UHGV virus genome: UHGV-0038496 | Strand: one strand, 5' to 3' | Length of the DNA: 64,000 bases | DNA from: a virus | Part shown: piece after piece, positions 43,537 to 54,729 of the stretch | Position numbering within the stretch: the stretch's first letter is position 1 | Layout: each line of letters begins with the position of its first letter | Made by a program: the position numbers and the translations under genes | Notes under the pieces: generated by a model | What the model saw: only the letters and a program-made list of their open reading frames with translations | The model's database searches: none | What the model was told of the DNA's origin: nothing

Positions 43537-44067
43537 TTATTTCATCATTTTGCGAATTTTGTTAGCCATTGCCGGGTTATCTAGTACAAGGTTGTAGAGG
43601 TCTTTAAAATTCTCGGCGGCATCCTCATAACCATTCAGGCCATAGCCTTTTACCATTTTGTTAAAACCTGCTTTATCTTCCTCTATAACTTCCTCTTTTT
43701 CTTTGAAAATTAATTCGCCGTTATCATCAACCAGGTTGGCCCCATTGTCAAAAACCAGATTCCCTTTTTCCCCTTTATAAACATGGTCACGGATCACGAC
43801 CTCTTTTAAAGCCTCCTGTATAACATATTTTGCATCATTTGCACAATTGCGATCCGCCTTTTTCAACCAGGCCCCTTTTTCCTTGATATCCGCATCAGGA
43901 TTAAAGGCGACCATAGGGGCAACAACTTCCCCGGCGCAATTCATTATAATTTCTTTCACATAGACGGGATTGATATGCTCAGGGGCTTCAACTTTAAAGC
44001 CGCCAGCGTTTACATTCGCACCGATAACCATCGCCAGGGCAGCTAAAACATATTTGAATGCTTTCAT
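43537..44067 (-). CDS. secreted/periplasmic protein (signal peptide)
   Basis: ATG at 44067 with AAGAGGAAAA RBS; MKAFKYVLAALAMVIGANVNA signal-peptide-like. Confidence 0.5.
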   Translation of the reverse strand: MKAFKYVLAALAMVIGANVNAGGFKVEAPEHINPVYVKEIIMNCAGEVVAPMVAFNPDADIKEKGAWLKKADRNCANDAKYVIQEALKEVVIRDHVYKGEKGNLVFDNGANLVDDNGELIFKEKEEVIEEDKAGFNKMVKGYGLNGYEDAAENFKDLYNLVLDNPAMANKIRKMMK

Positions 44068-44147
44068 GATTTTTTCCTCTTTCAAGTGGTTAATACTGCT
44101 TTCAGTTTTATAATATACTATCCTGGCAAGGTGTCAACACTTTTATC

Positions 44148-44333
44148 TTATTTTGCTTCTCTTTCTCTTCGTGCCAGGTACTTACACCGGGCCAGGGCTA
44201 GATCGAAATCTGCGTAAGCGCTATCACAAGTAGAATGTGTTAAACCTTTTACCATCACCTGGTAAACTTCCGGCCTAACCTCAAGGATCCAGTAGTTGCC
44301 CTCTTCGTAAAGTATTTGAGATTCTTTAATCAT
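44148..44333 (-). CDS. hypothetical protein
   Basis: Small ORF in minus-strand array. Confidence 0.35.
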   Translation of the reverse strand: MIKESQILYEEGNYWILEVRPEVYQVMVKGLTHSTCDSAYADFDLALARCKYLARREREAK

Positions 44334-44381
44334 GGTGTTTACTCCTTTTAGTGCTTTATGTTGTGTTTTTATGTTCTGTCG

Positions 44382-44657
44382 TTATTTATGAGCGCCTTTT
44401 ACGCCAACCAGGCGATTATATTCTAAGTGCTCAACAATTAACCAATCTTTGAAATCGCCGTCACGGTTTAACAGCCGCCAATCTTTGTTGATATTGTATT
44501 TATAGCCATAGCCGCAATTTAACTTAGTAGGATGCACCGCTTTCGCGTTGTGTGCTTCCAGGATGCTCAGGGCTTTTTTAAGAACGTTTGCGGGAGTATT
44601 TTTTTGCATTTTAACGTTCTTGATACCTTTAACGTCGATCATTTTCATGATGGTCAC
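44382..44657 (-). CDS. hypothetical protein
   Basis: ORF in minus-strand array. Confidence 0.4.
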   Translation of the reverse strand: MTIMKMIDVKGIKNVKMQKNTPANVLKKALSILEAHNAKAVHPTKLNCGYGYKYNINKDWRLLNRDGDFKDWLIVEHLEYNRLVGVKGAHK

Positions 44658-44744
44658 CTTTTTGTGTTTTGTTAGTCTTAACTACTTCTTTTAATTTAAT
44701 TGTATATCTTTTAGATTCTGTGTCAACTACTTTTTTCTAACTTT

Positions 44745-44954
44745 TTACCCCTCCCTGGCAAGGCGTTCAAGCCGGATAACCATTCTTGCGACCGCCCTCC
44801 AATCCGCATCATTAAATTCATCCATAGGGGCCGGATTGTTCATTACTTCCAGGTTGTTGATATTGACGTGATACGGTACAGCTTTTACAGGTGCGGCCTT
44901 TGCTGCCGCTTTTCTTGCTTTCGCCGCTTTGCGTTTATCTCTACCCATGCCCAT
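44745..44954 (-). CDS. hypothetical basic protein
   Basis: Lys/Ala-rich N-terminus. Confidence 0.4.
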   Translation of the reverse strand: MGMGRDKRKAAKARKAAAKAAPVKAVPYHVNINNLEVMNNPAPMDEFNDADWRAVARMVIRLERLAREG

Positions 44955-45047
44955 GATTTGTTACTCCTCTGGTTGTTGGCCTTACTTCTTTCTTCATCTT
45001 TATAGTAAGAAAAAGGCCTGCACATTGCAAGCCTTTATGAAGATTTT

Positions 45048-45329
45048 TTAAAACAACGCATGTAGCGGGTAACGGTTACCAGGGTAATAAATCACCTTGA
45101 TCATTTCGTCCGGCAGGAAGAAGTTAAACCATTCGCCAGTGTTATCGTCTGGATCTTCGTCCGCATACATGAAGAAGTAGTCTACAGTTTCCTCGCCAGG
45201 GGCCTGGCCTTCGTTGTATTCTACCCTAGTTAATTTCAACGGGCGATCATTACGGATTATAACCATACCAGCCTGTAAATAACGGGCTTCAAAATTGATA
45301 ACCGCGCCAGGTAATAAGTTAGGGAACAT
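45048..45329 (-). CDS. hypothetical protein
   Basis: ATG at 45329 with AGAGGAG RBS; a C10 homopolymer lies in the 5' leader. Confidence 0.45.
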   Translation of the reverse strand: MFPNLLPGAVINFEARYLQAGMVIIRNDRPLKLTRVEYNEGQAPGEETVDYFFMYADEDPDDNTGEWFNFFLPDEMIKVIYYPGNRYPLHALF

Positions 45330-45636
45330 AATTTTAACTCCTCTGTTGTTGGTGGGGGGGGGGTATTCCCCTTTCAAGAATAAGTATACACACAACAGAC
45401 CACATTGCAAGAAAAATTTTATCAGATGATAACTATTCTCATTTTGCAGGAGGCAACACTTTTGAGTCTGGATCGCTTCGAGGTTGGCAATAGTGGAAGC
45501 GTTGAAATCGATTTTTAGGCACCTGGCAGGGCCTGTAACGGCCTGGAATGGTGGGGGCTTTACACTTGCATATCTTGCTGGTAAATCTTGATGGCGGGGC
45601 TTACAGGAAGGATTTAAAACACAGGAGGCAGGGCCA

Positions 45637-45661
45637 TAAAAAAGGCCGCTGATTTGCGGCC
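45637..45661 (-). terminator. rho-independent terminator (minus strand)
   Basis: GGCCGC-tgattt-GCGGCC hairpin with T-run on minus strand; near-identical to the 40093 terminator. Confidence 0.55.
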
Positions 45662-45682
45662 CTTCATAATAGTTTCACATTG

Positions 45683-45799
45683 TTATCTTTTCGCGTCGTG
45701 TTTATCGCCAGCTATACCGAAGACCTTCCAGCCTACACCGATCCCGATGATACAGATAAACCAGACAACCAGGGCACCAAGCCCGATCAAGATGTGCAT
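45683..45799 (-). CDS. small membrane peptide (38 aa)
   Basis: Below ORF-track cutoff; AGAGGG RBS; hydrophobic. Confidence 0.35.
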   Translation of the reverse strand: MHILIGLGALVVWFICIIGIGVGWKVFGIAGDKHDAKR

Positions 45800-45804
45800 T
45801 GTCG

Positions 45805-46155
45805 TTACCCTCTAAAATAATGTTTTACGATTGCAATAATTACAGGCGCAACATAATAGACCACTGCACCCAAGACGGCCCACGGGGCCAGTTTTTTGGC
45901 GACTGGATAAATGTATTCACCGCACACATAGCACACGATCCAGGCCAACATAATTTTAATCGGTGCATTGTAAAAGATGTTATGCACCCAATCAATATAA
46001 GCGTATGCCATACCGAAAAGCACCGCACCGATAGCGGCCCCACGGCATTTAATTTTACGGGCCGCTTTTTCGGCAGCTTCTCGATCAATGGCGTTCATCT
46101 CTGGGGCCATCTCGTTGACGTCCGGCATACGGTTTAACAGGTCGATGATTCTCAT
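45805..46155 (-). CDS. multi-pass membrane protein
   Basis: Three hydrophobic helices. Confidence 0.45.
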   Translation of the reverse strand: MRIIDLLNRMPDVNEMAPEMNAIDREAAEKAARKIKCRGAAIGAVLFGMAYAYIDWVHNIFYNAPIKIMLAWIVCYVCGEYIYPVAKKLAPWAVLGAVVYYVAPVIIAIVKHYFRG

Positions 46156-46369
46156 TGTTTTTCTTCCTCATGGTTGTTTCCTTCTGCGTCAATTATAGAT
46201 CGCTATAAAGTAAATGCCAACCCCCATAAGTGTTTCAATCGCCAGGATCTCACACCACGTTATCAAGTGGCTGATTGTATCATTGCAAGGTCGAGGCTTG
46301 TCTTTCATTTTCTTATTCCCCTTGTTGGTTGATGATAGGGCCGGACTTCCGGCCCTGGTTGAAATTGTG

Positions 46370-46600
46370 TTACATGATAGTAAGTTTACGGCCTTTGATC
46401 ATGATGTAACCGTGTCCAGCATTGCCCCAGATATCAACGTAGACGCGGCGCATCCGGCCCTCGAAGTTGATCATCCAGTTAGTCGGTAATTTTTTACCGT
46501 AACCGCTTGCAGGCATTTTGGCGTTGACTGGTTTTTCAATCATGACTACATCAAAAAAGTTTTTATAGTCAAATGTTGCAACAGCTGGCATAAGGTCCAT
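46370..46600 (-). CDS. hypothetical protein
   Basis: ORF in minus-strand array. Confidence 0.4.
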   Translation of the reverse strand: MDLMPAVATFDYKNFFDVVMIEKPVNAKMPASGYGKKLPTNWMINFEGRMRRVYVDIWGNAGHGYIMIKGRKLTIM

Positions 46601-46681
46601 GATGTTTCCCCTTCTTACTGTGTGGTTGAGTTCTCTTTATTGATGATCCACTTTCTCATCGTGGACCATCTAAAAGCTAAC

Positions 46682-46876
46682 TCATGCGGCTATTGCAATG
46701 ATTCGTTCTGCTGCCTCAACCGCTTCATAGTCCAGATTATTGTGGTGCGCTACATCCAGGAGGAAAGTTAGTGCATCTTTATAATCTTCGTAGTCGCAAC
46801 GATAAGCCTCTACACCTTCAACAAGAATCGCAATTTTACCAGCTTTTTTCAGGTTTACGATGTTAATGTGTTTCAT
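46682..46876 (-). CDS. hypothetical protein
   Basis: Small ORF in minus-strand array. Confidence 0.4.
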   Translation of the reverse strand: MKHINIVNLKKAGKIAILVEGVEAYRCDYEDYKDALTFLLDVAHHNNLDYEAVEAAERIIAIAA

Positions 46877-46951
46877 GATTTGTCACTCCTTTTAAATTGT
46901 TTACTGCTTTCGATTATCAGTATACTTGTTTTTTCTGATTTGTCAACCTTT

Positions 46952-47179
46952 CTAGACTTCTTCCGGTGCCGCTTTAAAGAATCCTCTAATGATCCGGCCT
47001 CCCCTTACACTTCTTGAAAAAATTGCGTCAACCTCGCGCCTGAATGCCTCTACCCAGATATCGCCCTTACTATCGCTATTCCTAACAATCCAGGCCATAC
47101 GGTAGACCTTGTTATCGAAATTAATCACACCTTTAGATGGTTTAACTCGATTCATGGGGAACTTGATAACGTTGCTCAT
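46952..47179 (-). CDS. hypothetical protein
   Basis: ORF in minus-strand array. Confidence 0.4.
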   Translation of the reverse strand: MSNVIKFPMNRVKPSKGVINFDNKVYRMAWIVRNSDSKGDIWVEAFRREVDAIFSRSVRGGRIIRGFFKAAPEEV

Positions 47180-47843
47180 TTTATTTTCCTCGCTTAGTTG
47201 TTTATTTTTGTAGTGGGAGGTTTATAACCTCCCTCCTCTGTGTTTATAATGCTGCCCGTATATGATGTACCAGATGTTTAAAAGCTCGCGCCAGGTAAAT
47301 TTATCATCTTCGGGCTTTTCTTTATCGTTTTTCATACCCAACCTCATTTTTTGTTATTCAGACCTTTTAACATTTCTTTAATGAAATCTTCCACCCTTTC
47401 ATATTCGTTTGCTTTGTAGTAGTCTTTCATTTTATTTTCCTCGTTTTCTTTCAGCTTCCCCCGGTTTATCCGGTCCTTGTTGCCTCCCTGCATCCTTTCC
47501 TTTCAACTTTATTTTACTGCTTTGTGTTACCTTGTCAACCTTTTTTACTTCTTTCTAGTTTTAGGGCTTTTCGGCTCCCTCGGTCCTTCGGTTAGCTATG
47601 CTTCAAGGCTTTTCCTTTACCCTTCTTTTCCCGCTCCCGGAACTTTCCTTTCTGTTCCCTTTCTTCTCCTTTCGACTATAGAATACCAAACCGGGGGGCC
47701 GTGTCAATACCTTTTTCACAACTTTCTTAAAAATTTTTACTTCCGCATGTTGCTTAAGATAAAACCAACAACCAGGCAGCAGATAACCACAAAGGCCAGG
47801 CCCACAGCGATAAACGGATTCATCAGCATTTCAAGTAACATGA

Positions 47844-48053
47844 TCAGGCCTCCAATACCATAATTTCAAAGCGTGCGACGATAGGGCTAACGTCTACGAG
47901 GCACATCGGATCGACTACGCGATGGATAACGACTAGATGATCATCATGCTTATCGATGTAATAATCCTCGTTATCAATTATTTCGCTTAGGTCATAATAA
48001 CGGCCTTTCTCATAGCGGCCCCGTGCATCATTGGCATAATCACAGTAGACCAT
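47844..48053 (-). CDS. hypothetical acidic protein
   Basis: ATG at 48053 with AGGAGGA RBS. Confidence 0.4.
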   Translation of the reverse strand: MVYCDYANDARGRYEKGRYYDLSEIIDNEDYYIDKHDDHLVVIHRVVDPMCLVDVSPIVARFEIMVLEA

Positions 48054-48209
48054 TTTGCTTTCCTCCTGCTGTGTTTCTTCTTTCAATTAAAATAATACGC
48101 AGATCCTACAAGAAGTAAATAAGGTTTTACCTATTGATTTTTGCGTTAGATGTGTTTTACAGGTTGGGGAGTGGCAAACGAAGAAAGGCCCCACCAGGGG
48201 GCCTATCGG

Positions 48210-48431
48210 TTAAATTTCGTCTGCTTTCATGCGTTCACGCCGTGCTGCATATTTCATTTGCTGGCGTTCACGTTCAAGTAACAGGCGGCGTAAATTACGG
48301 TCGTAATAGTTGCGCCACAGTTTACCGAAGCGGCGCGGCTTGTTCAATTTGTTGTTACGCTGGCGGCGTTCCGGCAGTTCATCAGATAAATGATTGCGTT
48401 TAGTGATTTTTTCAAAGTTTACCATGTTCAT
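48210..48431 (-). CDS. Arg-rich basic protein (possible nucleic-acid binding)
   Basis: About 25% Arg/Lys; AGGAG RBS. Confidence 0.4.
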   Translation of the reverse strand: MNMVNFEKITKRNHLSDELPERRQRNNKLNKPRRFGKLWRNYYDRNLRRLLLERERQQMKYAARRERMKADEI

Positions 48432-48445
48432 AATCGGCGCTCCTG

Positions 48446-48784
48446 TTACTCGTTATCGTCGTTTTCTTCTGCTGCAATATTTGCCGCTACTGCTTTAATA
48501 AATTTTTTCGCGTCACCGTTGCGGCCCCACAGGTCAACGATTAAAAATCCTGCCTGCTTTATCTTATTCGTGTACTCCAGCAAGTTGTAAGCCGGGATCG
48601 GCGACGGCGTTACATATTGTTTCCCGTGTCGGTCCTGGTACTTGATAACATAATCAGCACCCGGATCAATATCCCACGGATTCACCCGAAAAGCCTGGCA
48701 CCTGGCGTAATAACTTTGATTTCTTACTTTGTTCCAGACTACCCCGATTGCAATAAATGTAAGTATGCACGTCACTAGATCCAT
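48446..48784 (-). CDS. membrane-anchored protein
   Basis: ATG at 48784 with AAGAGGAAAA RBS; N-terminal helix. Confidence 0.4.
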   Translation of the reverse strand: MDLVTCILTFIAIGVVWNKVRNQSYYARCQAFRVNPWDIDPGADYVIKYQDRHGKQYVTPSPIPAYNLLEYTNKIKQAGFLIVDLWGRNGDAKKFIKAVAANIAAEENDDNE

Positions 48785-48871
48785 AGATTTTTCCTCTTTG
48801 CTATTGTGTGGGCATAATGTCACCTCCTCCTGGTTGGATAGGGGGCCGGACTCCCGGCCCCGCCTGGTATG

Positions 48872-49120
48872 TTATCCTAACATTTTAAAATAGTTGACGT
48901 TCAAAATTTTTTCAATATCGTCAACCGCTTTGATATGCATGAAAGCAATCAATTTACCATCGATGCGGATAACCGGGCGGCCCAGGTGATAACCTTTAAT
49001 CATACGCGCTTTTACTTTTCCACCTGCTCCCCCTTCACGCCACCAAATGGCTTTTCCGTTGCTGTAATACCAATCAGCTTTTACCAGGTCCACCGCTGCA
49101 AAGTTAATTAATTTAGCCAT
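48872..49120 (-). CDS. hypothetical protein
   Basis: ORF in minus-strand array. Confidence 0.4.
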   Translation of the reverse strand: MAKLINFAAVDLVKADWYYSNGKAIWWREGGAGGKVKARMIKGYHLGRPVIRIDGKLIAFMHIKAVDDIEKILNVNYFKMLG

Positions 49121-49197
49121 TGCGTAACTCCTCTCTTATTGTGGTTACACTAAATTATCTTTATGGATGGCCCCGCCAGGGCCATCTAAAAGGCAAC

Positions 49198-49536
49198 TTA
49201 GTTACGTAACGCTTCCTCTACTTCCTGCAATTCTGCTTCAAGGTCGGCCAATTCGTCGCACAAATCACAATAGTTTGCGTCATCGCTTACGTCTACGCTG
49301 TCTACATAGTCATTCAATCCGCAACGATAAGCAATCGGATCCAATTCGCGTAAGATTCTAGACGGTAAAAATTCGCAACCGCCTACCACTACCGCACCGC
49401 CTTCGTCTAGTACTTCATTGTAGTCATCTTCATAATCAGCCGGATCGATTTCAAAATTCTCGATTTTATTGTTCAGTTGTTCGATAGCTGCAACCAGAGC
49501 GGCACGACGTGCAATCATTTCGACGTTAGCGTTCAT
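49198..49536 (-). CDS. hypothetical acidic protein
   Basis: Acidic, Cys-containing. Confidence 0.4.
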   Translation of the reverse strand: MNANVEMIARRAALVAAIEQLNNKIENFEIDPADYEDDYNEVLDEGGAVVVGGCEFLPSRILRELDPIAYRCGLNDYVDSVDVSDDANYCDLCDELADLEAELQEVEEALRN

Positions 49537-49634
49537 AATGTTTTCTCCTCTGTTGTTACTTATTACTGTGGTTAGTTTACTTTATTGATGGCCCCGTGTC
49601 AATACTTTTTGAGGCCATCTAAAAGCAAGCTATT

Positions 49635-49994
49635 TTATTTGTATGCTAGTTCCACATAAAACCGCGCCATCAGTTCAAACCATTCTTCAATGTAACGTTC
49701 TTTAGTATCTTCTTTAGTTTTTTCATCAATGATCCCGAACTCACGCAGGCGGTTTAAAATGTCATCGTTGCAAAAATCGATATCAACACCGCTAGGAAGA
49801 CCAGCCAGCCAGTCAGCCATAGCCTTCACACGATTGCCATTGAAGCGACGGATATAATAGCCGTCGAAATGCTCAGCTTCAAAGCGTGCTTTCAGTTCCT
49901 CAACGTCGTTGTCGTGTTCCATGTCATCAAAGTTCAAGCTATCAACTACATACTCACGAATTGCGTTAGCCATAGCCTTATTGATGCGTTTCAT
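49635..49994 (-). CDS. hypothetical protein
   Basis: ORF in minus-strand array. Confidence 0.4.
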   Translation of the reverse strand: MKRINKAMANAIREYVVDSLNFDDMEHDNDVEELKARFEAEHFDGYYIRRFNGNRVKAMADWLAGLPSGVDIDFCNDDILNRLREFGIIDEKTKEDTKERYIEEWFELMARFYVELAYK

Positions 49995-50261
49995 AATATT
50001 TTCCTCTTTGTGATTTACTAATTACTTCTTTCAGTTTTAAGTTTACTTATTTTTGCTACCGTGTCAACTAATTTTTTGAATTTATTTTACATCATTACAC
50101 GAAAGACCAACATAACCAGGTAGACCAGTACCATAATCATAACATCGCGGCGGATCTGATAGCGAGAATAATTTTTCATGATTGTTTCCCCTTCGTTGTG
50201 TGGATTTTTAGGTTACTTTATAGATGGCCCGGTGTCAATATCCAGGCCATCGAAAAACAAC

Positions 50262-50672
50262 CTATAAGCTCATATAGTCACGATGTGCAATCATCCATGC
50301 AGCGTCTTTGTTTTCACAATAGCCGACGTGGCGAGACTCCCCATCATAACGATAGATAACCTGGTAAACTGCTTCCCCTCTAAGGTCCAGGACGTGGCGC
50401 ACTTCGTAACGTTTGCAACGTTTAACTTGTGCGATACGTGCCCCGAAAATTAGTTTTACCAGTTCTTTCCAATGGCGACGGGCATCAGTTAAAGACACCA
50501 CACTAAACCATGCTTGCCGCTCGCCATCAGCATTAAAAGCGCGAACATGGTAGCAACCGTGGGCCTTAAACAGATCCACCATTTCACGATCCCGCCCCTC
50601 TACCATTTGAACATATCCGCAAGCTAAAGCGAACGCAGTTAAACCATTTGCATTACGGAAAGTAGTTTTCAT
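50262..50672 (-). CDS. hypothetical protein
   Basis: ORF in minus-strand array. Confidence 0.4.
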   Translation of the reverse strand: MKTTFRNANGLTAFALACGYVQMVEGRDREMVDLFKAHGCYHVRAFNADGERQAWFSVVSLTDARRHWKELVKLIFGARIAQVKRCKRYEVRHVLDLRGEAVYQVIYRYDGESRHVGYCENKDAAWMIAHRDYMSL

Positions 50673-50721
50673 GATCCTTTCTCCTGTGTTTTATTAATCT
50701 CGTTTACTGCTTTCATTGTTA

Positions 50722-50749
50722 AGTATACTTGTTTTTTATCGCCTGTCAA
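50722..50749 (-). promoter_or_regulatory. sigma70-like promoter on minus strand (TTGACA, 16 bp spacer, TATACT)
   Basis: rc TTGACA at 50744-50749 and rc TATACT at 50722-50727; drives gene starting at 50672. Confidence 0.5.
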
Positions 50750-50936
50750 CTCTATTTTTCATCTTTTTTAAAGAAATCGATCAGGCCTTTGATAACTGCC
50801 GCCAGGTGCAAGCCCAGCAAAAAGAAGGCATAGCCTACAATGATTGCCGCGATAATGTTCATAATGTTGCCTCCTGTTGTGTGAATAGTAACTTTATTCA
50901 TGGGGCCGTTGCTACAGCCCCAGGGTAAAGCGGCTA

Positions 50937-51182
50937 TTAGTGCGGCATTCCTACCATAGCGGCGCGGATGTTAGTTTTATTGTAAGGCACTCCATCAGGC
51001 GTATGAGTGATCCCCTCTTCTTTCAAGCGGTAAACCATTAAATCAGCTGCCGCGTCTTTATTGCCACACTCATTAATCAGGCCCATCGCTAAAAACCATA
51101 AACCTTCGTCATTGTTGATCCAAAGTGCGACGTTCCATTGATTGTAATTTTTCCAACCGTTATAACCTTTATTGCCTTTCAT
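50937..51182 (-). CDS. hypothetical protein
   Basis: ORF in minus-strand array. Confidence 0.4.
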   Translation of the reverse strand: MKGNKGYNGWKNYNQWNVALWINNDEGLWFLAMGLINECGNKDAAADLMVYRLKEEGITHTPDGVPYNKTNIRAAMVGMPH

Positions 51183-51262
51183 AATTTTATCCTCTTTAGT
51201 TTTTGCCTCTGGGGAAATTTCTTTCCCTTTCGGTTTATATACTACATCTTTATTCTACCGTG

Positions 51263-51496
51263 TCAACATTTTTTAAAGAATTTTTCTACCGTGATATCTT
51301 TCCCAGCAGGTTTAGCCACTTTCAGAATTTTATCATGCACCGGGCGCCCGAAAGAATAAGCGCCATACACAGTAAGCCAATAATCCCCGTTAGGCTGTAC
51401 TATTACCGCTGCATATGGTACGCCTTTCTCGTTATCGTTGACAAAATAGATCACATTGCCATTAATAGCCTCAGCGCGTTTAATTTGTTCCTTCAT
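51263..51496 (-). CDS. hypothetical protein
   Basis: ORF in minus-strand array. Confidence 0.4.
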   Translation of the reverse strand: MKEQIKRAEAINGNVIYFVNDNEKGVPYAAVIVQPNGDYWLTVYGAYSFGRPVHDKILKVAKPAGKDITVEKFFKKC

Positions 51497-51582
51497 GATT
51501 GTACCTCTCTTTTTGACTGTTGTTTGCCTTTCACTTATAGAATAACAGAACGTTCGGGCGTGTCAACTATTTTTTCTCCAGG

Positions 51583-51768
51583 TCATTGATCGCGGTCGCC
51601 AGTATTGTAAACCTCACCGCCGATCTTGTGTTCAACGTAACGATATAACATGCAATACAACCATTTTAAAACTTTTGCTATAATAGCCACCGCCATAATA
51701 ATAGCCTCTTTAAACCAGTATATTACTATCAAGACGGCGGCAATGTTGACTAAAGTATCATTGCTCAT
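51583..51768 (-). CDS. small membrane protein
   Basis: Two hydrophobic helices. Confidence 0.4.
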   Translation of the reverse strand: MSNDTLVNIAAVLIVIYWFKEAIIMAVAIIAKVLKWLYCMLYRYVEHKIGGEVYNTGDRDQ

Positions 51769-51838
51769 AACCGGATCCCCTCTTCGTTGTTTAAACTGCC
51801 TTTATTGATGGCCCCGCCAGGGCCATCTAAAAGGCAGC

Positions 51839-52240
51839 TTAAGCGTGTGCCTCAATCACTTTAGCTTTTTCATAACCGAAGTAGTGAGCAAGCTGAATTA
51901 AGAATTTTTCAGGATAAACATAATCACCAGCTTTTACACCCATTGCCTCGATTGCTTCCCGTAATGCGGCCTCTTCTTTATCGTAACCATAGCCACCAGC
52001 TTTCCCGCCAACAGTAGCATAAAATTCGTGCCCTGCTTCATGTACCCAAACTACACAGTAAACAGTGTTACCGCGCGGCGCCTGGTAGAAACGAATCGTT
52101 GCTACTTCTTCCAGGTCCATTTTGTGGTCCAGTGCCACCAGGTCAAAAGACTTATAAAAACCATTTTCGCGGCGGCAGTTACGAAGATCGCGAACTTCTT
52201 CCAGACCAGAGAAATCGAAATTTGTGTTAAAAGCGTTCAT
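51839..52240 (-). CDS. hypothetical protein with HExxH motif
   Basis: VWVHEAGHEFYA contains HEAGH. Confidence 0.4.
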   Translation of the reverse strand: MNAFNTNFDFSGLEEVRDLRNCRRENGFYKSFDLVALDHKMDLEEVATIRFYQAPRGNTVYCVVWVHEAGHEFYATVGGKAGGYGYDKEEAALREAIEAMGVKAGDYVYPEKFLIQLAHYFGYEKAKVIEAHA

Positions 52241-52289
52241 GATGTTACTCCTTATATTTTGTTAACCTTATGTACTGCTTTCACTATCT

Positions 52290-52318
52290 ATAATACTTTA
52301 TTTCTTTCTGGTGTCAAC
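52290..52318 (-). promoter_or_regulatory. sigma70-like promoter on minus strand (TTGACA, 17 bp spacer, TATTAT)
   Basis: rc TTGACA at 52313-52318 and rc TATTAT at 52290-52295; drives gene starting at 52240. Confidence 0.55.
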
Positions 52319-52323
52319 TCTTT

Positions 52324-52518
52324 TTAAAATTTTTTATCTTTAAACCAGTGTTTGATCTGGCCAGGTGTTAACGCACAACGGTTAAGATACTGGATTGTAT
52401 AGCTATTCCCCCGTTTAAACTTGTAAAGACCTTGCCCGTTGTTGATTGTTACGTCTACCTTTGCCGTTACCTGGTCGGCAACTGTCCGGCGGCGGCCTGG
52501 AAGGTTGTAAGCTAACAT
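52324..52518 (-). CDS. hypothetical protein
   Basis: ATG at 52518 with AGGAGAGG RBS. Confidence 0.4.
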   Translation of the reverse strand: MLAYNLPGRRRTVADQVTAKVDVTINNGQGLYKFKRGNSYTIQYLNRCALTPGQIKHWFKDKKF

Positions 52519-52537
52519 TTTTTGTCCTCTCCTGTGG

Positions 52538-52711
52538 TCATTTGTGGTTAAATTCACCAGCGGCGGCACCTGCTGCCATTACCATCATTTTTTCATAATC
52601 CAACCAGTTGATAAGCGCGTCACGCATTGCTTTACGGCGTTTATCGTCAACTTCACGACCATTAACGATAATTTCTCTTTCTTTTACGTTGTTGTTAACC
52701 ATGCCTTTCAT
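52538..52711 (-). CDS. small hypothetical protein (57 aa)
   Basis: Below ORF-track cutoff; ATG with AGGAGGA RBS. Confidence 0.4.
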   Translation of the reverse strand: MKGMVNNNVKEREIIVNGREVDDKRRKAMRDALINWLDYEKMMVMAAGAAAGEFNHK

Positions 52712-52719
52712 TTTATTTT

Positions 52720-53860
52720 CCTCCTACCTTGCGGCCTGATGTTTTGCTTTCCGTTTCCCCTTTGTTTCCCTTCACCTATAGAATACACCAGGCCATAGCC
52801 TGATCAATAGCTATATGGTAAAAGGTTGACATAGATCACACTACCAACCAGGTTGCAAGCCGGACTCCCCACCGGACCAGGGGAGGCGGCCCAGTGTACC
52901 AGGGCGCGGCCTGTTGGCCCCGCCAGGTTGCAGACTATCGGGGGATCGGTCGTGTGAATGTTGTAACTAATATTTTTCGAAAAAAGCTGTTGACATGGGG
53001 GCCGGATCTGTTATTATATAATCAAGCCGGGGCACCAGGGGCCGGGAGACAAACACCGGGGATGCGCGAAATATATTTTGAGAATGATTATCATTTAAAA
53101 AAATAGTTACTTACGGTGATTGATAGTAACCTAAGCAAATCGAGGTAATAACGCACGGTTAGTAATAGTTTTCTATAGAAATAGTAACTGACCGTGATTT
53201 ATAGTTGCGTGGTGTAATTAAAATAGTAACGCACGGTGATTTATAGTCACAAAGATTTGTAGTAACGGTGATAATCACTCATGAAACTATCTAAAATTTA
53301 GTTAGCAGGCTAATTACGTACCGTGACTATCCACCAAAAATGGTAGGGGGTAAATTTTTTCTATATAGAAATTCAAAATCCACTTTCAAAAATAAAAAAG
53401 TGCTTTCGTGCCTCAGGCGCAGGCCTAGCCAGAACCAGACCGAGATCCAGAATCCAAAATCGAAAATAAAAAACCTATCGAGAACCGAGGAAAAAGGCTG
53501 TCGAGATTTTCAGAATCCGCTTTCGATTTTGAAAAACAGATCGAGTACTTAGGGAAATTGCTGGGAAAGTCTCAGGATAAGTTGACAGGTCAATAGAGTA
53601 CTGTGTGGAAATGTGGGAAAAGATGTGGGGGAATATGTGCAATGCATATGCAAATACATGCATACATAATAGCAATAGGCTAAAATCTATTTGGCTAGTT
53701 TTCTAAAGTGTTGCTTATGCTTCTAAAAAATCCATTTTCGTACTCTCCTAATTGCCTAAGTTTTTTATAATTCCCAAATATCTGTAAGTATCTGATAAAT
53801 AAGGAGAAATCCACTACAGATTTCTCCTTGTAACCTAAAACTTTTATAATTCTCAAATCA
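52720..53860. repeat. second ORF-free repeat region with iteron-like ATAGTAAC...CGGTGAT repeats and 35-bp imperfect direct repeats
   Basis: At least four ATAGTAAC(N)ACGGTGAT(T)TATAGT copies in 53100-53290; three imperfect repeats in 53360-53545; palindromes 53600-53680. Confidence 0.55.
52992..53020 (+). promoter_or_regulatory. strong sigma70-like promoter on plus strand, opposite to flanking genes
   Basis: A-rich upstream tract, TTGACA, 16-17 bp spacer, TATTAT/TATAAT; no downstream plus-strand ORF; coordinates approximate. Confidence 0.5.
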
Positions 53861-54184
53861 CTTTTTCTTAAGCATCCGTTTTGGAGTTACCTCTGTCACC
53901 TCCCATCTGAATAATCCTACCCACCACCAACCATCAGCATGATAACTTTCAATGCAGCTCAAGCGTGCATGATCGAATGTGTAAGATAGTGCAATACTAT
54001 ACAAAGTGAACCAGTCTTTTACAGGTTGTGGGCCATATGCTCTATGCCAGCAATGACACAAGCTGAATGCTTCAAGGAAAGGCAGGAGTGCCATCTTGTA
54101 TCCTACCAGCGCCAGAGCAATAACCAAAGCACCTATAAACGTGATTCCTGCTACGTCTACACAGATTTCCCATACTTCATTCAT
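53858..54184 (-). CDS. membrane protein
   Basis: Hydrophobic helices. Confidence 0.4.
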   Translation of the reverse strand: MNEVWEICVDVAGITFIGALVIALALVGYKMALLPFLEAFSLCHCWHRAYGPQPVKDWFTLYSIALSYTFDHARLSCIESYHADGWWWVGLFRWEVTEVTPKRMLKKK

Positions 54185-54375
54185 TCTTTAGCACCTCTGT
54201 CAATGTACACTTTGCTTCTCATCCGCATGTACACTTGGTATCCATTCTCAAAAGTGAACAGGAGAACACGGTTACCTACAGACTCAATGCTTTTAACCTG
54301 TAGGATTTCGTGACGGCCTGGGATACGGATGCGATCCCCCGGTGCTACGATTGTGCAAGATTTAAGCTCGAACAT
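54181..54375 (-). CDS. hypothetical protein
   Basis: ORF in minus-strand array. Confidence 0.4.
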   Translation of the reverse strand: MFELKSCTIVAPGDRIRIPGRHEILQVKSIESVGNRVLLFTFENGYQVYMRMRSKVYIDRGAKE

Positions 54376-54387
54376 AGTACACTCTCC

Positions 54388-54729
54388 TTATTCCACCAGG
54401 AAACGGCGGCAGCAGAAGCAGAATAAATCGTCCCGTGCCATACCGATATCAGTGCTACCACAATGTGGGCAACGGCGTTTACCATCCTGAATCGGCACAT
54501 AGTCTGGGATAACCATGTATGCTACGATTGGTGGAAATTCAAAATAGAATTGACCATTGATCACGCCAACCTTGTGTGCATACTTGCCCTGACCAGCCAT
54601 AACAACTTCGCATACACCATATTCTTGCAGACCATTAATGTCTCGCATACAGACAAAGTATATACCGATTGGCATGTTCTCCACGCCATCAACATCTATC
54701 CATTGCATTGTTACTGTCTGATTCTTCAT
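54388..54729 (-). CDS. hypothetical protein with C-terminal zinc ribbon
   Basis: CPHCGS ... CFCC. Confidence 0.4.
   Translation of the reverse strand: MKNQTVTMQWIDVDGVENMPIGIYFVCMRDINGLQEYGVCEVVMAGQGKYAHKVGVINGQFYFEFPPIVAYMVIPDYVPIQDGKRRCPHCGSTDIGMARDDLFCFCCRRFLVE

Follow-up and report, generated by a model that had tools for sequence, protein, structure and literature searches.

The window, that is the whole 64 kb stretch of DNA that was analysed, comes from the genome of an rV5-like / Vequintavirus-like coliphage in which a recurring element separates small early genes. Six copies of this element (E1-E6) lie on the minus strand, the same strand as the leftward genes, and their neighbors are small ORFans (30-136 aa, function unknown). 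Each copy is a 52-60 nt two-part hairpin whose first bases fall at the stop codon of the upstream gene (Table 1).

Architecture and distribution of the element

The hairpin is built from (I) a variable lower stem, (II) an invariant CUUU/AAAG segment, (III) a 2x3 internal loop, (IV) an upper stem, GAUGGCC/GGCCAUC, and (V) a loop that varies from 3 to 15 nt across copies. The invariant core reads CUUU-UA-GAUGG...CCAUC-AAU-AAAG, and the paired region totals ~20-23 bp. Folding gave this arrangement of two stems around a 2x3 internal loop for each of the six copies, with energies of -21.6 to -34.1 kcal/mol and z-scores of -4.1 to -6.3.

Table 1. Positions, types and scores of the six copies in the window
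Feature	Coordinates	Strand	Type	Stop codon of upstream gene	Fold energy (kcal/mol)	z	Covariance model (bits)
E1	51791..51842	(-)	short-loop type, without -35; full bipartite hairpin	TAA (51839-51841) of 133-aa gene, in lower stem	-34.1	-6.3	70
E1 upper stem + loop	51807-51827	(-)					
E2	50884..50938	(-)	degenerate sixth copy; from descriptor scan and best sub-threshold covariance-model match	50937-50939, 81-aa gene	-23.9	-4.1	17.1 (sub-threshold)
E3	50209..50264	(-)	promoter type; 9-nt loop	TAG (50262-50264) of 136-aa gene, is hairpin base	-26.3	-4.3	68-77
E4	49573..49632	(-)	promoter type; 15-nt loop with A tract		-21.6	-5.1	63-71
E5	49149..49202	(-)	short-loop type, without -35	TAA (49198-49200) of 112-aa gene, in lower stem	-28.9	-5.0	66
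E6	46627..46684	(-)	9-nt loop, without -35	TGA (46682-46684) of 64-aa gene, in lower stem	-25.5	-6.3	54-64

Searching the window for CCATCNATAAAG with at most one mismatch gave 8 matches where 1.45 were expected, and six of the eight lie on the minus strand between 46.6 and 51.9 kb. Both strands of the 64 kb window were scanned with a structural descriptor, NATAAAG no more than 3 nt beyond a GC-rich stem of 7 bp or longer; it returned exactly six sites, compared with 0.3 on average in shuffles. The covariance model recovered five copies at 54-70 bits (E <= 5e-10), the sixth (E2) below threshold, and no further matches. E2 shares the architecture of the others (lower stem, CUUU/AAAG, internal loop, GC-rich upper stem, then GAAUAAAG), while its upper stem differs in sequence (CUGGGGCUG/CGGCCCCAUG); it sits after the stop codon of its upstream gene and before a 36-aa membrane-like ORF that starts at 50862.

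The family is restricted to Vequintavirus-like phages, where 4-6 copies each are grouped within ~5 kb. When the 26 family copies, which come from six phages, are aligned, the upstream gene's stop codon occupies columns 2-4 in nearly all of them. The ATG follows 30-43 nt downstream. E. coli genomes contain zero copies, and Rfam gave no element match in the region 44000-54500, the sole match being a sub-threshold Trp_leader elsewhere.

The initial annotation had described five near-identical inverted repeats of 21-33 nt. All five repeats exist where it placed them and correspond to the upper stem and loop of the larger hairpin; the one at 46641-46669, within E6, is not near-identical, and its stem is kept via compensatory changes. 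The lower stem, the embedded stop codon, the role at gene-block-exchange junctions (see below) and the sixth copy, E2, had all gone unnoticed.

Sequence variation points to RNA structure on the sense transcript

RNAalifold independently gives the same structure. Across the 26 copies, 92.4% of the cells at paired positions can pair, compared with 83% in shuffles and 33-55% with the partners slid. Double-change cells number 49 against 19.6 expected, and 7 of the 13 lower-stem pairs show compensatory changes. In E6 the upper stem is maintained by compensatory changes (GGUCCAC/GUGGAUC; GAUGGUCCAC/GUGGAUCAUC, one G.U included), and its ortholog in the relative L009 carries an additional double change, from A-U to G-C. 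G.U combinations outnumber A.C by 69 to 15 on the sense strand, which also folds better than the antisense in five of the six copies. The G.U excess and the compensatory changes speak for an RNA structure formed by the sense transcript.

In addition to pairing, the 5'-UA / 3'-side NAU internal loop is kept in 26/26 copies. The sequence around this loop, CUUUUAGAUGG / CCAUCNAUAAAG, is invariant beyond pairing needs, AUAAAG is retained even with an unrelated upper stem, and the family is limited to one 5-kb cluster, as might be expected if a phage or host RNA-binding protein read the internal-loop core. Such a protein could be a translational/stability regulator or an antiterminator, and its binding would coordinate expression of the small gene cluster. 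However, no candidate protein was identified and the flanking genes are all of unknown function, the hairpin lies 30-45 nt upstream of Shine-Dalgarno sequences, which makes direct occlusion unlikely, and the conservation could stem from gene conversion among copies. We regard this reading as distinctly improbable.

Promoters nested in the hairpin and the case for read-through

In two of the window's six copies the hairpin contains a sigma-70 promoter whose -35 falls within the loop and whose -10 belongs to the lower stem; the other four lack a -35. In E3, the -35 TTGACA (50238-50233) is followed, after a 17-nt spacer made up of the 3' arm, the internal loop and AAAG, by the -10 TAACCT (50215-50210) in the 3' strand of the lower stem, and transcription is predicted to start at ~50203. 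In E4, the promoter scan found TTGACA-17-TAAACT (10/12 matches), with the -35 (49602-49597) in the loop, the -10 (49579-49574) in the lower stem's 3' strand and a predicted start at ~49567, outside the hairpin. Family-wide, a promoter of this kind is present in 14/26 copies and the -35 is absent in 12/26; the Murica counterpart of E6, at the same position after a homologous gene, has TTGACT in its loop.

In the promoter-bearing copies the half-sites AGATGGCC/GGCCATCT flank the -35, as they would in a double-stranded DNA operator for a dimeric repressor of the overlapping promoter. However, the half-sites are 3 to 15 nt apart depending on the copy, E6 and E2 alter the half-site sequence and keep the pairing, G.U pairs outnumber A.C by 69 to 15, and a promoter that could be repressed is lacking in four of the six copies of the window, so that this reading is extremely improbable. 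A palindromic operator was rejected on the spacing, the covarying arms and G.U far above A.C.

None of the six copies is listed by the terminator scan. A U tract is absent in 26/26 copies, the 3' flank being a conserved AAUAAAG, and no U run follows the lower stem either; a canonical terminator with a U tract is found elsewhere in the phage (48204-48186). The 61-aa gene downstream of E1 (start 51768) and the 76-aa gene downstream of E6 (start 46600) have no promoter of their own, and the genes after E5 (48872-49120, 48446-48784 and 48210-48431) have no strong promoter before that terminator. Because E1, E5 and E6 thus precede conserved genes without their own promoter, these hairpins must allow read-through. 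An intrinsic (Rho-independent) terminator was rejected on the missing U tract, the AAUAAAG flank and the absence from the terminator scan.

These results agree with the initial annotation in three respects: the -35 lies in the loop of two copies, a clear U-tract is missing, and the hairpins are not simple terminators. It had also offered several functions, among which a processing site or an attenuator fits the RNA-level evidence (sense-only G.U, compensatory changes, variable loop), while an operator overlapping the promoter found no support.

A leaky hairpin-dependent transcription attenuator has been proposed for the PeSL (promoter-early stem-loop) elements of T4-type phages. Here, such an attenuator would remove part of the read-through polymerases arriving from upstream, insulating the cassettes and creating a downward expression gradient, and the nested promoter, where present, would restart transcription. 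Attenuation has to be taken into account because an RB49 PeSL stem-loop acted like a strong terminator, cutting downstream lacZ to the rrnB T1 level (PMC2839356). It is also in keeping with the GC-rich, stable upper stem, with the PeSL-like layout (stop codon, AT-rich stretch, stem-loop, promoter, Shine-Dalgarno sequence), with the label 'terminator' that the Murica annotators gave to two element copies, and with the existence of terminators whose hairpin provides a coupled promoter with its -35 (2026 preprint, 10.64898/2026.08.19.745784). Set against this are the 0/26 copies with a U tract and the conserved AAUAAAG, and on both strands the arms run U-rich 5' and A-rich 3', the opposite of terminator polarity. 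Furthermore, efficient termination is impossible at the three copies that precede genes without another promoter, and the phage uses canonical U-tract terminators elsewhere. We consider attenuation the main rival to the processing role proposed below, possible but rather unlikely.

Elements at the borders of exchanged gene blocks

The element marks sites of gene-block exchange between related phages, a coincidence of cassette and breakpoint that rests on few independent events. The homology of the window to two relatives, L017 and L018, ends at 51799, within E1, and picks up again with a plain promoter cassette at 51274 or shortly after E2, at 50855. The gene block that follows E1 is a different one in each of three phages, and in L009 and L018 the E1 copy has a 3' half similar to that of E5. 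Compared with Murica the genes stand in a shuffled order, yet elements are still found behind g14 and to either side of g9. Selection on the element is suggested by the comparison with L017, in which orthologous elements reach 93-97% identity and their flanks 85-90%; against L018 the picture is mixed (82-96% vs 85-90% for the flanks), two elements being no better than their flanks.

Homology that stops inside E1, the E5-like 3' half of E1 in two relatives, the shuffled order relative to Murica and the similar behavior of PeSLs (PMC2839356, PMC4122927) would all be accommodated if the elements were mainly recombination linkers or mobile cassette borders. The conserved sequence would then provide homology for swapping ORFan modules, possibly via mini-circles, and the hairpin would be incidental or act at the DNA level only. 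Yet homology alone does not account for compensatory changes, for G.U pairs that are specific to one strand, for a stop codon held in constant register, or for an architecture that survives with an unrelated upper stem (E2; L018:2890-2980). The shuffling is also compatible with the intercistronic RNA role proposed below, and may be a mere consequence of it. A predominantly recombinational role appears improbable.

Relation to known intercistronic elements and proposed function

A close parallel in layout is offered by the PeSLs, mobile cassettes of the T4-like phages RB49/phi1, PST/T4 and nt-1/KVP40 (Arbiol et al. 2010, PMC2839356; Comeau et al. 2014, PMC4122927). Like these, the element is a repeated intergenic cassette between an upstream stop and a downstream Shine-Dalgarno sequence and ATG, combines, in some copies, a sigma-70 early promoter with a stable stem-loop containing G.T pairs, and sits among small ORFan genes of a plastic region, where cassettes are breakpoints of gene-block replacement in close relatives. 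The lineage differs, being Vequintavirus-like and not T4-like. So does the hairpin: the stems of PeSLs are short (GN-loop-CN or A3-4G3-loop-C3T3-4), whereas the element forms a longer, two-part hairpin of ~20 bp with a conserved internal loop and a U-rich 5', A-rich 3' polarity, holds the -35 within its loop and has its -10 region base-paired to the U-rich arm upstream. Moreover, the -35 is missing in 4/6 window and 12/26 family copies, and each genome holds 4-6 copies in ~5 kb, compared with dozens of PeSLs in hyperplastic regions. The description of PeSLs also includes terminator and promoter activity in reporters, and the formation of mini-circles.

Promoter-coupled terminators likewise place stem-loop DNA at the end of a unit so that it supplies the -35 of the next promoter, with the -10 just downstream, but consist of a true intrinsic terminator hairpin with a T tract as spacer (Fletcher et al. 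2026 preprint, 10.64898/2026.08.19.745784). The spacer of the element is CCAUCAAUAAAG, without a T tract. This class was rejected on the same ground, the spacer being (C)GGGGCCAUCAAUAAAG.

In architecture, the element resembles the RNase III sites of T7 (R0.3, R0.5, R1, R1.1, R1.3 and others), which are sequence-related intercistronic hairpins of a coliphage polycistronic transcript, start on the upstream stop codon or right beside it, and span about two helical turns in total. With the same folding tool, R0.3 to R1.3 show a GC-rich upper stem of 9-13 bp, an internal loop and a lower stem, the hairpin following right after the stop codon. T7 sites also adjoin promoters (phi1.1A, R1.1 and phi1.1B; phi1.3 and R1.3). 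However, they have no sequence homology with the element, whose lower stem is much stronger (9-13 bp vs ~5), in which the distal-box consensus is absent, whose promoter lies inside the hairpin and not adjacent to it, and whose cleavage is putative.

RNase III substrates require about two helical turns, and the cut must lie 11 bp or more from the loop. Where an internal loop is present, the enzyme cuts only once and a protective hairpin stays on the 3' end; the box determinants are UA/UG for the distal box and GC, AU/UA, AU, AU/UA for the proximal box (PMC1540722). The element provides a quasi-continuous helix of ~20-22 bp (upper stem 9-10 bp, 2x3 loop, lower stem 9-13 bp) and, as in T7-type substrates, an internal loop that separates upper and lower stems. 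By inspection, the canonical distal box is absent, with C-G/C-G at that position, and a proximal-box-like set fits in one register only, in which pb1 is the G-C pair closing the upper stem and pb2-4 are the internal loop and the first U-A pair.

From the structure, its formation on the sense strand, the lack of terminator features, the RNase III-like geometry, the conservation of orthologous elements and the position at exchange borders, we infer a PeSL-like cassette in which the hairpin is a boundary mark in polycistronic early RNA, probably a processing/stabilising site for RNase III of the T7 type, and give this reading a probability of roughly 0.45. RNA polymerase would not be stopped, the hairpin would form in read-through polycistronic early transcripts and it would act as post-transcriptional intercistronic punctuation. 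In its most likely form, that of a T7-type RNase III site, the internal loop would restrict cutting to one strand, and after cleavage the upstream mRNA would end in a hairpin that protects its 3' side, the downstream cistron being released. Transcripts from the nested promoter are predicted to start just past the hairpin and would lack it.

We note that a general way of processing transcripts would hardly be expected to use only 4-6 copies confined to ~5 kb of a ~30 kb leftward early cluster. That the core is so strictly conserved could alternatively be due to a factor that reads its sequence, or to the element having spread recently by recombination.

It is conceivable, if quite improbable, that the same 60 bp serve in Vequintavirinae as DNA promoter, read-through RNA hairpin and portable border of ORFan modules, with processing gated by translation. 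Ribosomes terminating at the embedded stop would open the lower stem, and translation of the upstream ORF would thereby gate processing, whether RNase III or a phage factor recognising the invariant internal loop carries it out. If so, gated processing would also set the fate of the downstream cistron, and a dual-use genetic switch of such design would be one not yet described.

REP elements (e.g. malE-malF) and T4 intercistronic hairpins can block 3'-to-5' exonucleases and set differential mRNA stability. As repeated GC-rich hairpins between co-transcribed genes, REP elements are similar to the element in placement; they have no sequence relation to it, and its bipartite architecture and nested promoter are foreign to them.

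Stop-codon hairpins in the leftward gene cluster

The window belongs to a divergent coliphage of rV5-like (Vequintavirinae-related) type. Matches to GenBank phages are only patchy (~77-86% identity), and three IMG/VR contigs (~137-141 kb) are ~88% identical over the element region. Rightward genes for replication and nucleotide metabolism occupy ~1-33 kb, and small leftward genes fill ~33-64 kb. In a promoter scan around the elements, most leftward genes are each preceded by a strong sigma-70 promoter (A tract, TTGACA, 16-17 nt, TAnnnT). All proteins flanking the elements are unassigned in function.

The five inverted repeats listed in the initial annotation were all recovered at the positions given there, each within a far bigger element when read on the transcribed (minus) strand. 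A sequence pattern matched the window 8 times against 1.45 expected, and a structural descriptor found 6 sites where shuffled sequence gave 0.3 on average. With filters off over the whole 64 kb, a covariance model returned five matches at 54-70 bits, a sixth, diverged copy (E2) at 17 bits, and none besides. The three methods concur that the family is real, lies on the minus strand only and is confined to 46.6-51.9 kb. A search of Rfam found no known RNA family for the element.

Features of the leftward cluster and the non-coding stretch that interrupts it
Feature	Position	Strand	Detail
E1	51791-51842	minus	loop UGGC, no -35
E2	50884-50938	minus	diverged copy, no -35
E3	50209-50264	minus	TTGACA in loop
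E4	49573-49632	minus	TTGACA in loop
E5	49149-49202	minus	loop UGGC, no -35
E6	46627-46684	minus	no -35
Canonical intrinsic terminator	48186-48204	minus	AGGCCCCCTGGTGGGGCCT then TTCTTCGTTT; closes g9-g12 operon
Plain promoter cassettes	46899-46947, 50020-50068, 50702-50750, 52270-52318		no hairpin
Second GC-rich intergenic hairpin family	46337-46363, 48842-48868; also 52856-52882, 52902-52928		GGGGCCGGACTCCCGGCCCC; between leftward genes
Purine-rich ORF-free transcribed stretch	47430-47707	minus	GAAAGGAGAAGAAAGGGAACAGAAAGGAAAG...
Non-coding stretch	52850-53860		~1 kb, ORF-poor, repeat-rich
Very GC-rich hairpins	52856-52928		in non-coding stretch
Sigma-70 promoter with extended -10, in non-coding stretch	52990-53017	rightward	
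Dyad/iteron-like repeats	53096-53247		ACTATnAATCACCGT..GTTACTAT, 4 copies, in non-coding stretch
Repeats	53368-53536		GAAATTCAAAATCC...AAAATAAAAAA, three, in non-coding stretch
Repeats	53728-53858		AAATCCA...TTATAATTC, two, in non-coding stretch

Structural analysis reveals two helices. The lower stem (9-13 bp) is variable in sequence, and its 5' arm begins at or over the upstream stop codon, and almost all copies have T[AG]A in alignment columns 2-4. Next come the invariant pairs CUUU/AAAG, an asymmetric internal loop that is also conserved (UA or UC opposite NAU), and an upper stem of 9-10 bp, GAUGGCC(C)/(G)GGCCAUC, capped by 3, 4, 9 or 15 loop nucleotides. The copies fold at -21.6 to -34.1 kcal/mol (z-scores -4.1 to -6.3). 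By inspection, the tandem G.A pairs of a K-turn or other named internal-loop motif are absent.

Two loops had been said to contain the -35 hexamer of the downstream promoter, and this is the case for E3 and E4. In both, the 17-nt spacer is made up of the 3' arm and AAUAAAG, and the lower stem's 3' strand serves as the -10 (TAACCT or TAAACT), which places the predicted start site just outside the hairpin. A reading of 'ATAAAG' as a -10 or as a T4-late-like promoter was set aside: the motif stands at the wrong distance from the loop -35, and only in the C/U variants is it TATAAA-like. The 5' UTRs downstream of every element (46592-51768), with or without a promoter, share a C/A-rich motif (AACCACA, CCACACAAC) 5-15 nt past the hairpin, followed by a Shine-Dalgarno of the GAAGGGG or GGAGG type; the motif may represent the region of transcription start or a translation leader free of structure.

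Selection probably acts on an RNA structure

The element is real and selected. In an alignment of 26 copies, 92.4% of cells are paired, compared with 83% in column shuffles and 33-55% with the partners slid. Double-change cells number 49 against 19.6 expected, compensatory change occurs in 7 of the 13 lower-stem pairs, and RNAalifold recovers the same two helices. On the sense strand there are 69 G.U pairs to 15 A.C (the latter would read as G.U on the antisense), and five of the six copies fold better in the sense orientation. Orthologous elements are 93-97% identical to those of the relative L017, against 85-90% for the coding DNA on their flanks; the same comparison with a second relative, L018, is mixed. 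Taken with the variable loop length, these results favour a hairpin at the RNA level, in the mRNA-sense transcript.

An operator overlapping the promoter, as the initial annotation had also considered, does not survive the same data. The covariation, the strand-specific G.U excess and the variable spacing across the loop argue against a duplex-DNA operator or cruciform, and this reading was rejected.

E2 and a copy in L018 (2890-2980) have upper stems unrelated in sequence and keep the architecture and the AUAAAG flank. The L018 copy suggests a broader class set by structure rather than sequence. Its upper stem is AAGCCCCC/GGGGGGCUU, and its loop TTGACA is followed by UAUAAAG and a -10 of TATGAT.

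Read-through and a T7-like processing geometry

No copy has a U tract, as had been noted from the sequence. The conserved 3' flank is AAUAAAG with nothing U-rich past the lower stem, and the polarity of the element (5' U-rich, 3' A-rich) is opposite to that of a terminator on both strands. Genes lacking a promoter of their own follow E1, E5 (three genes) and E6, and polymerase must therefore read through these hairpins. An intrinsic terminator was rejected on the missing U tract and the need for read-through, in agreement with the earlier suggestion that these may not be simple terminators. Ordinary terminators are in use within the same cluster, since a canonical one closes the g9-g12 operon.

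T7 RNase III sites, folded with the same tool, have a geometry like that of the element: a lower stem and a GC-rich upper stem of 9-13 bp with an internal loop between them, directly after a stop codon. Published criteria for E. coli RNase III ask for about two helical turns, with at least 11 bp from loop to cut, and an internal loop confines the enzyme to one bond, leaving a protective 3' hairpin (PMC1540722). The element satisfies these length and internal-loop criteria. The sequence determinants are matched only in part, because the distal box, with the proximal/distal box rules applied by hand, is C-G rather than UA/UG. From this geometry we infer that the hairpin would act as punctuation in early read-through RNA, through RNase III-type processing and protection of 3' ends. 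The chief competing reading is a leaky attenuator, the role claimed on reporter evidence for the stem-loops of PeSL (promoter-early stem-loop) cassettes in T4-like phages (PMC2839356). Possibly, too, a dedicated RNA-binding factor recognises the invariant internal-loop core.

A PeSL-like cassette in rV5-like phages

Conservation in related phages, proposed earlier as a check, is borne out: orthologous positions are occupied in close IMG/VR relatives. Classical Vequintavirus genomes also carry the family, and 54 GenBank records match. Murica has 4 copies within 4.3 kb (74/135 kb of the genome searched), and 'Campylobacter phage A142' has 4 within 4.4 kb on one strand (entire 140.9-kb genome searched). 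MG065662 and its siblings (L014-L016; 'Campylobacter phage A142/A141/A140...') are unverified, unannotated GenBank records of ~141 kb; since they are classed as Vequintavirus and bear the same coliphage element family, the Campylobacter host label looks doubtful. In other phage groups, the 112-aa flanking gene has distant homologs (L019-L025), none of them accompanied by the element. A host-derived repeat was rejected, with no match in 5,426 E. coli genomes. Pattern-scan hits in L001, L003 and L010 are treated as chance matches, not significant under the covariance model (best E ~0.5).

Window homology to L017 and L018 alike ends at 51799, directly after AUAAAG inside E1, and past this point each of the three phages has a gene block unlike the other two. 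The match picks up again at 51274, a plain promoter cassette, or at 50855, just beyond E2. In L018 and a further relative, L009, the 3' half of the E1 copy resembles that of E5. Gene order is shuffled relative to Murica (g3 and g4 moved, g10 transposed); despite this, an element still follows the g14 homolog, and the g9 homolog still has one on either side. The copy after g14 has a -35 in Murica and none in the window, so that the hairpin is the constant part and the promoter optional. The PeSL linkers of T4-like phages behave alike (PMC2839356, PMC4122927), and the element is best filed as a structurally distinct form of PeSL-type composite promoter/stem-loop cassette whose hairpin resembles a T7 RNase III site in shape.

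Our literature search found no relevant Vequintavirus transcriptomes and no PeSL-like elements in rV5-like phages. If confirmed, composite cassettes that regulate and shuffle small early genes would not be restricted to T4-like phages, and a structurally distinct form would exist in rV5-like coliphages, which are widely used for therapy and biocontrol. The element is short (~60 nt) and occurs naturally with and without a promoter, which makes it a compact test case for how U-tract-less hairpins shape phage early transcripts via processing, stabilisation or attenuation. Automated pipelines call the elements 'terminator' (two copies in the Murica annotation) or overlook them (GGCCATC and GATGGCC are absent from the supplementary promoter and terminator tables of the rV5 genome paper).

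Other features of the early cluster

The plain promoter cassettes consist of an A tract, GTTGACA, N16 and TATACT, then a conserved 5' UTR (GAAAGCAGTAAAC); one of the gene-block junctions with L018, at 51274, coincides with a plain promoter of this general type. The second hairpin family likewise has no T tract. The GAAAGGAGAAGAAAGGGAACAGAAAGGAAAG stretch is enclosed by two strong sigma-70 promoters (-35 at 47707 and 47538) and may represent either an unusual leader or an RNA that codes for no protein. The ~1 kb non-coding stretch breaks the leftward small-gene cluster; it is probably the 'non-coding' box of the published rV5 map and could be an origin or regulatory hub.
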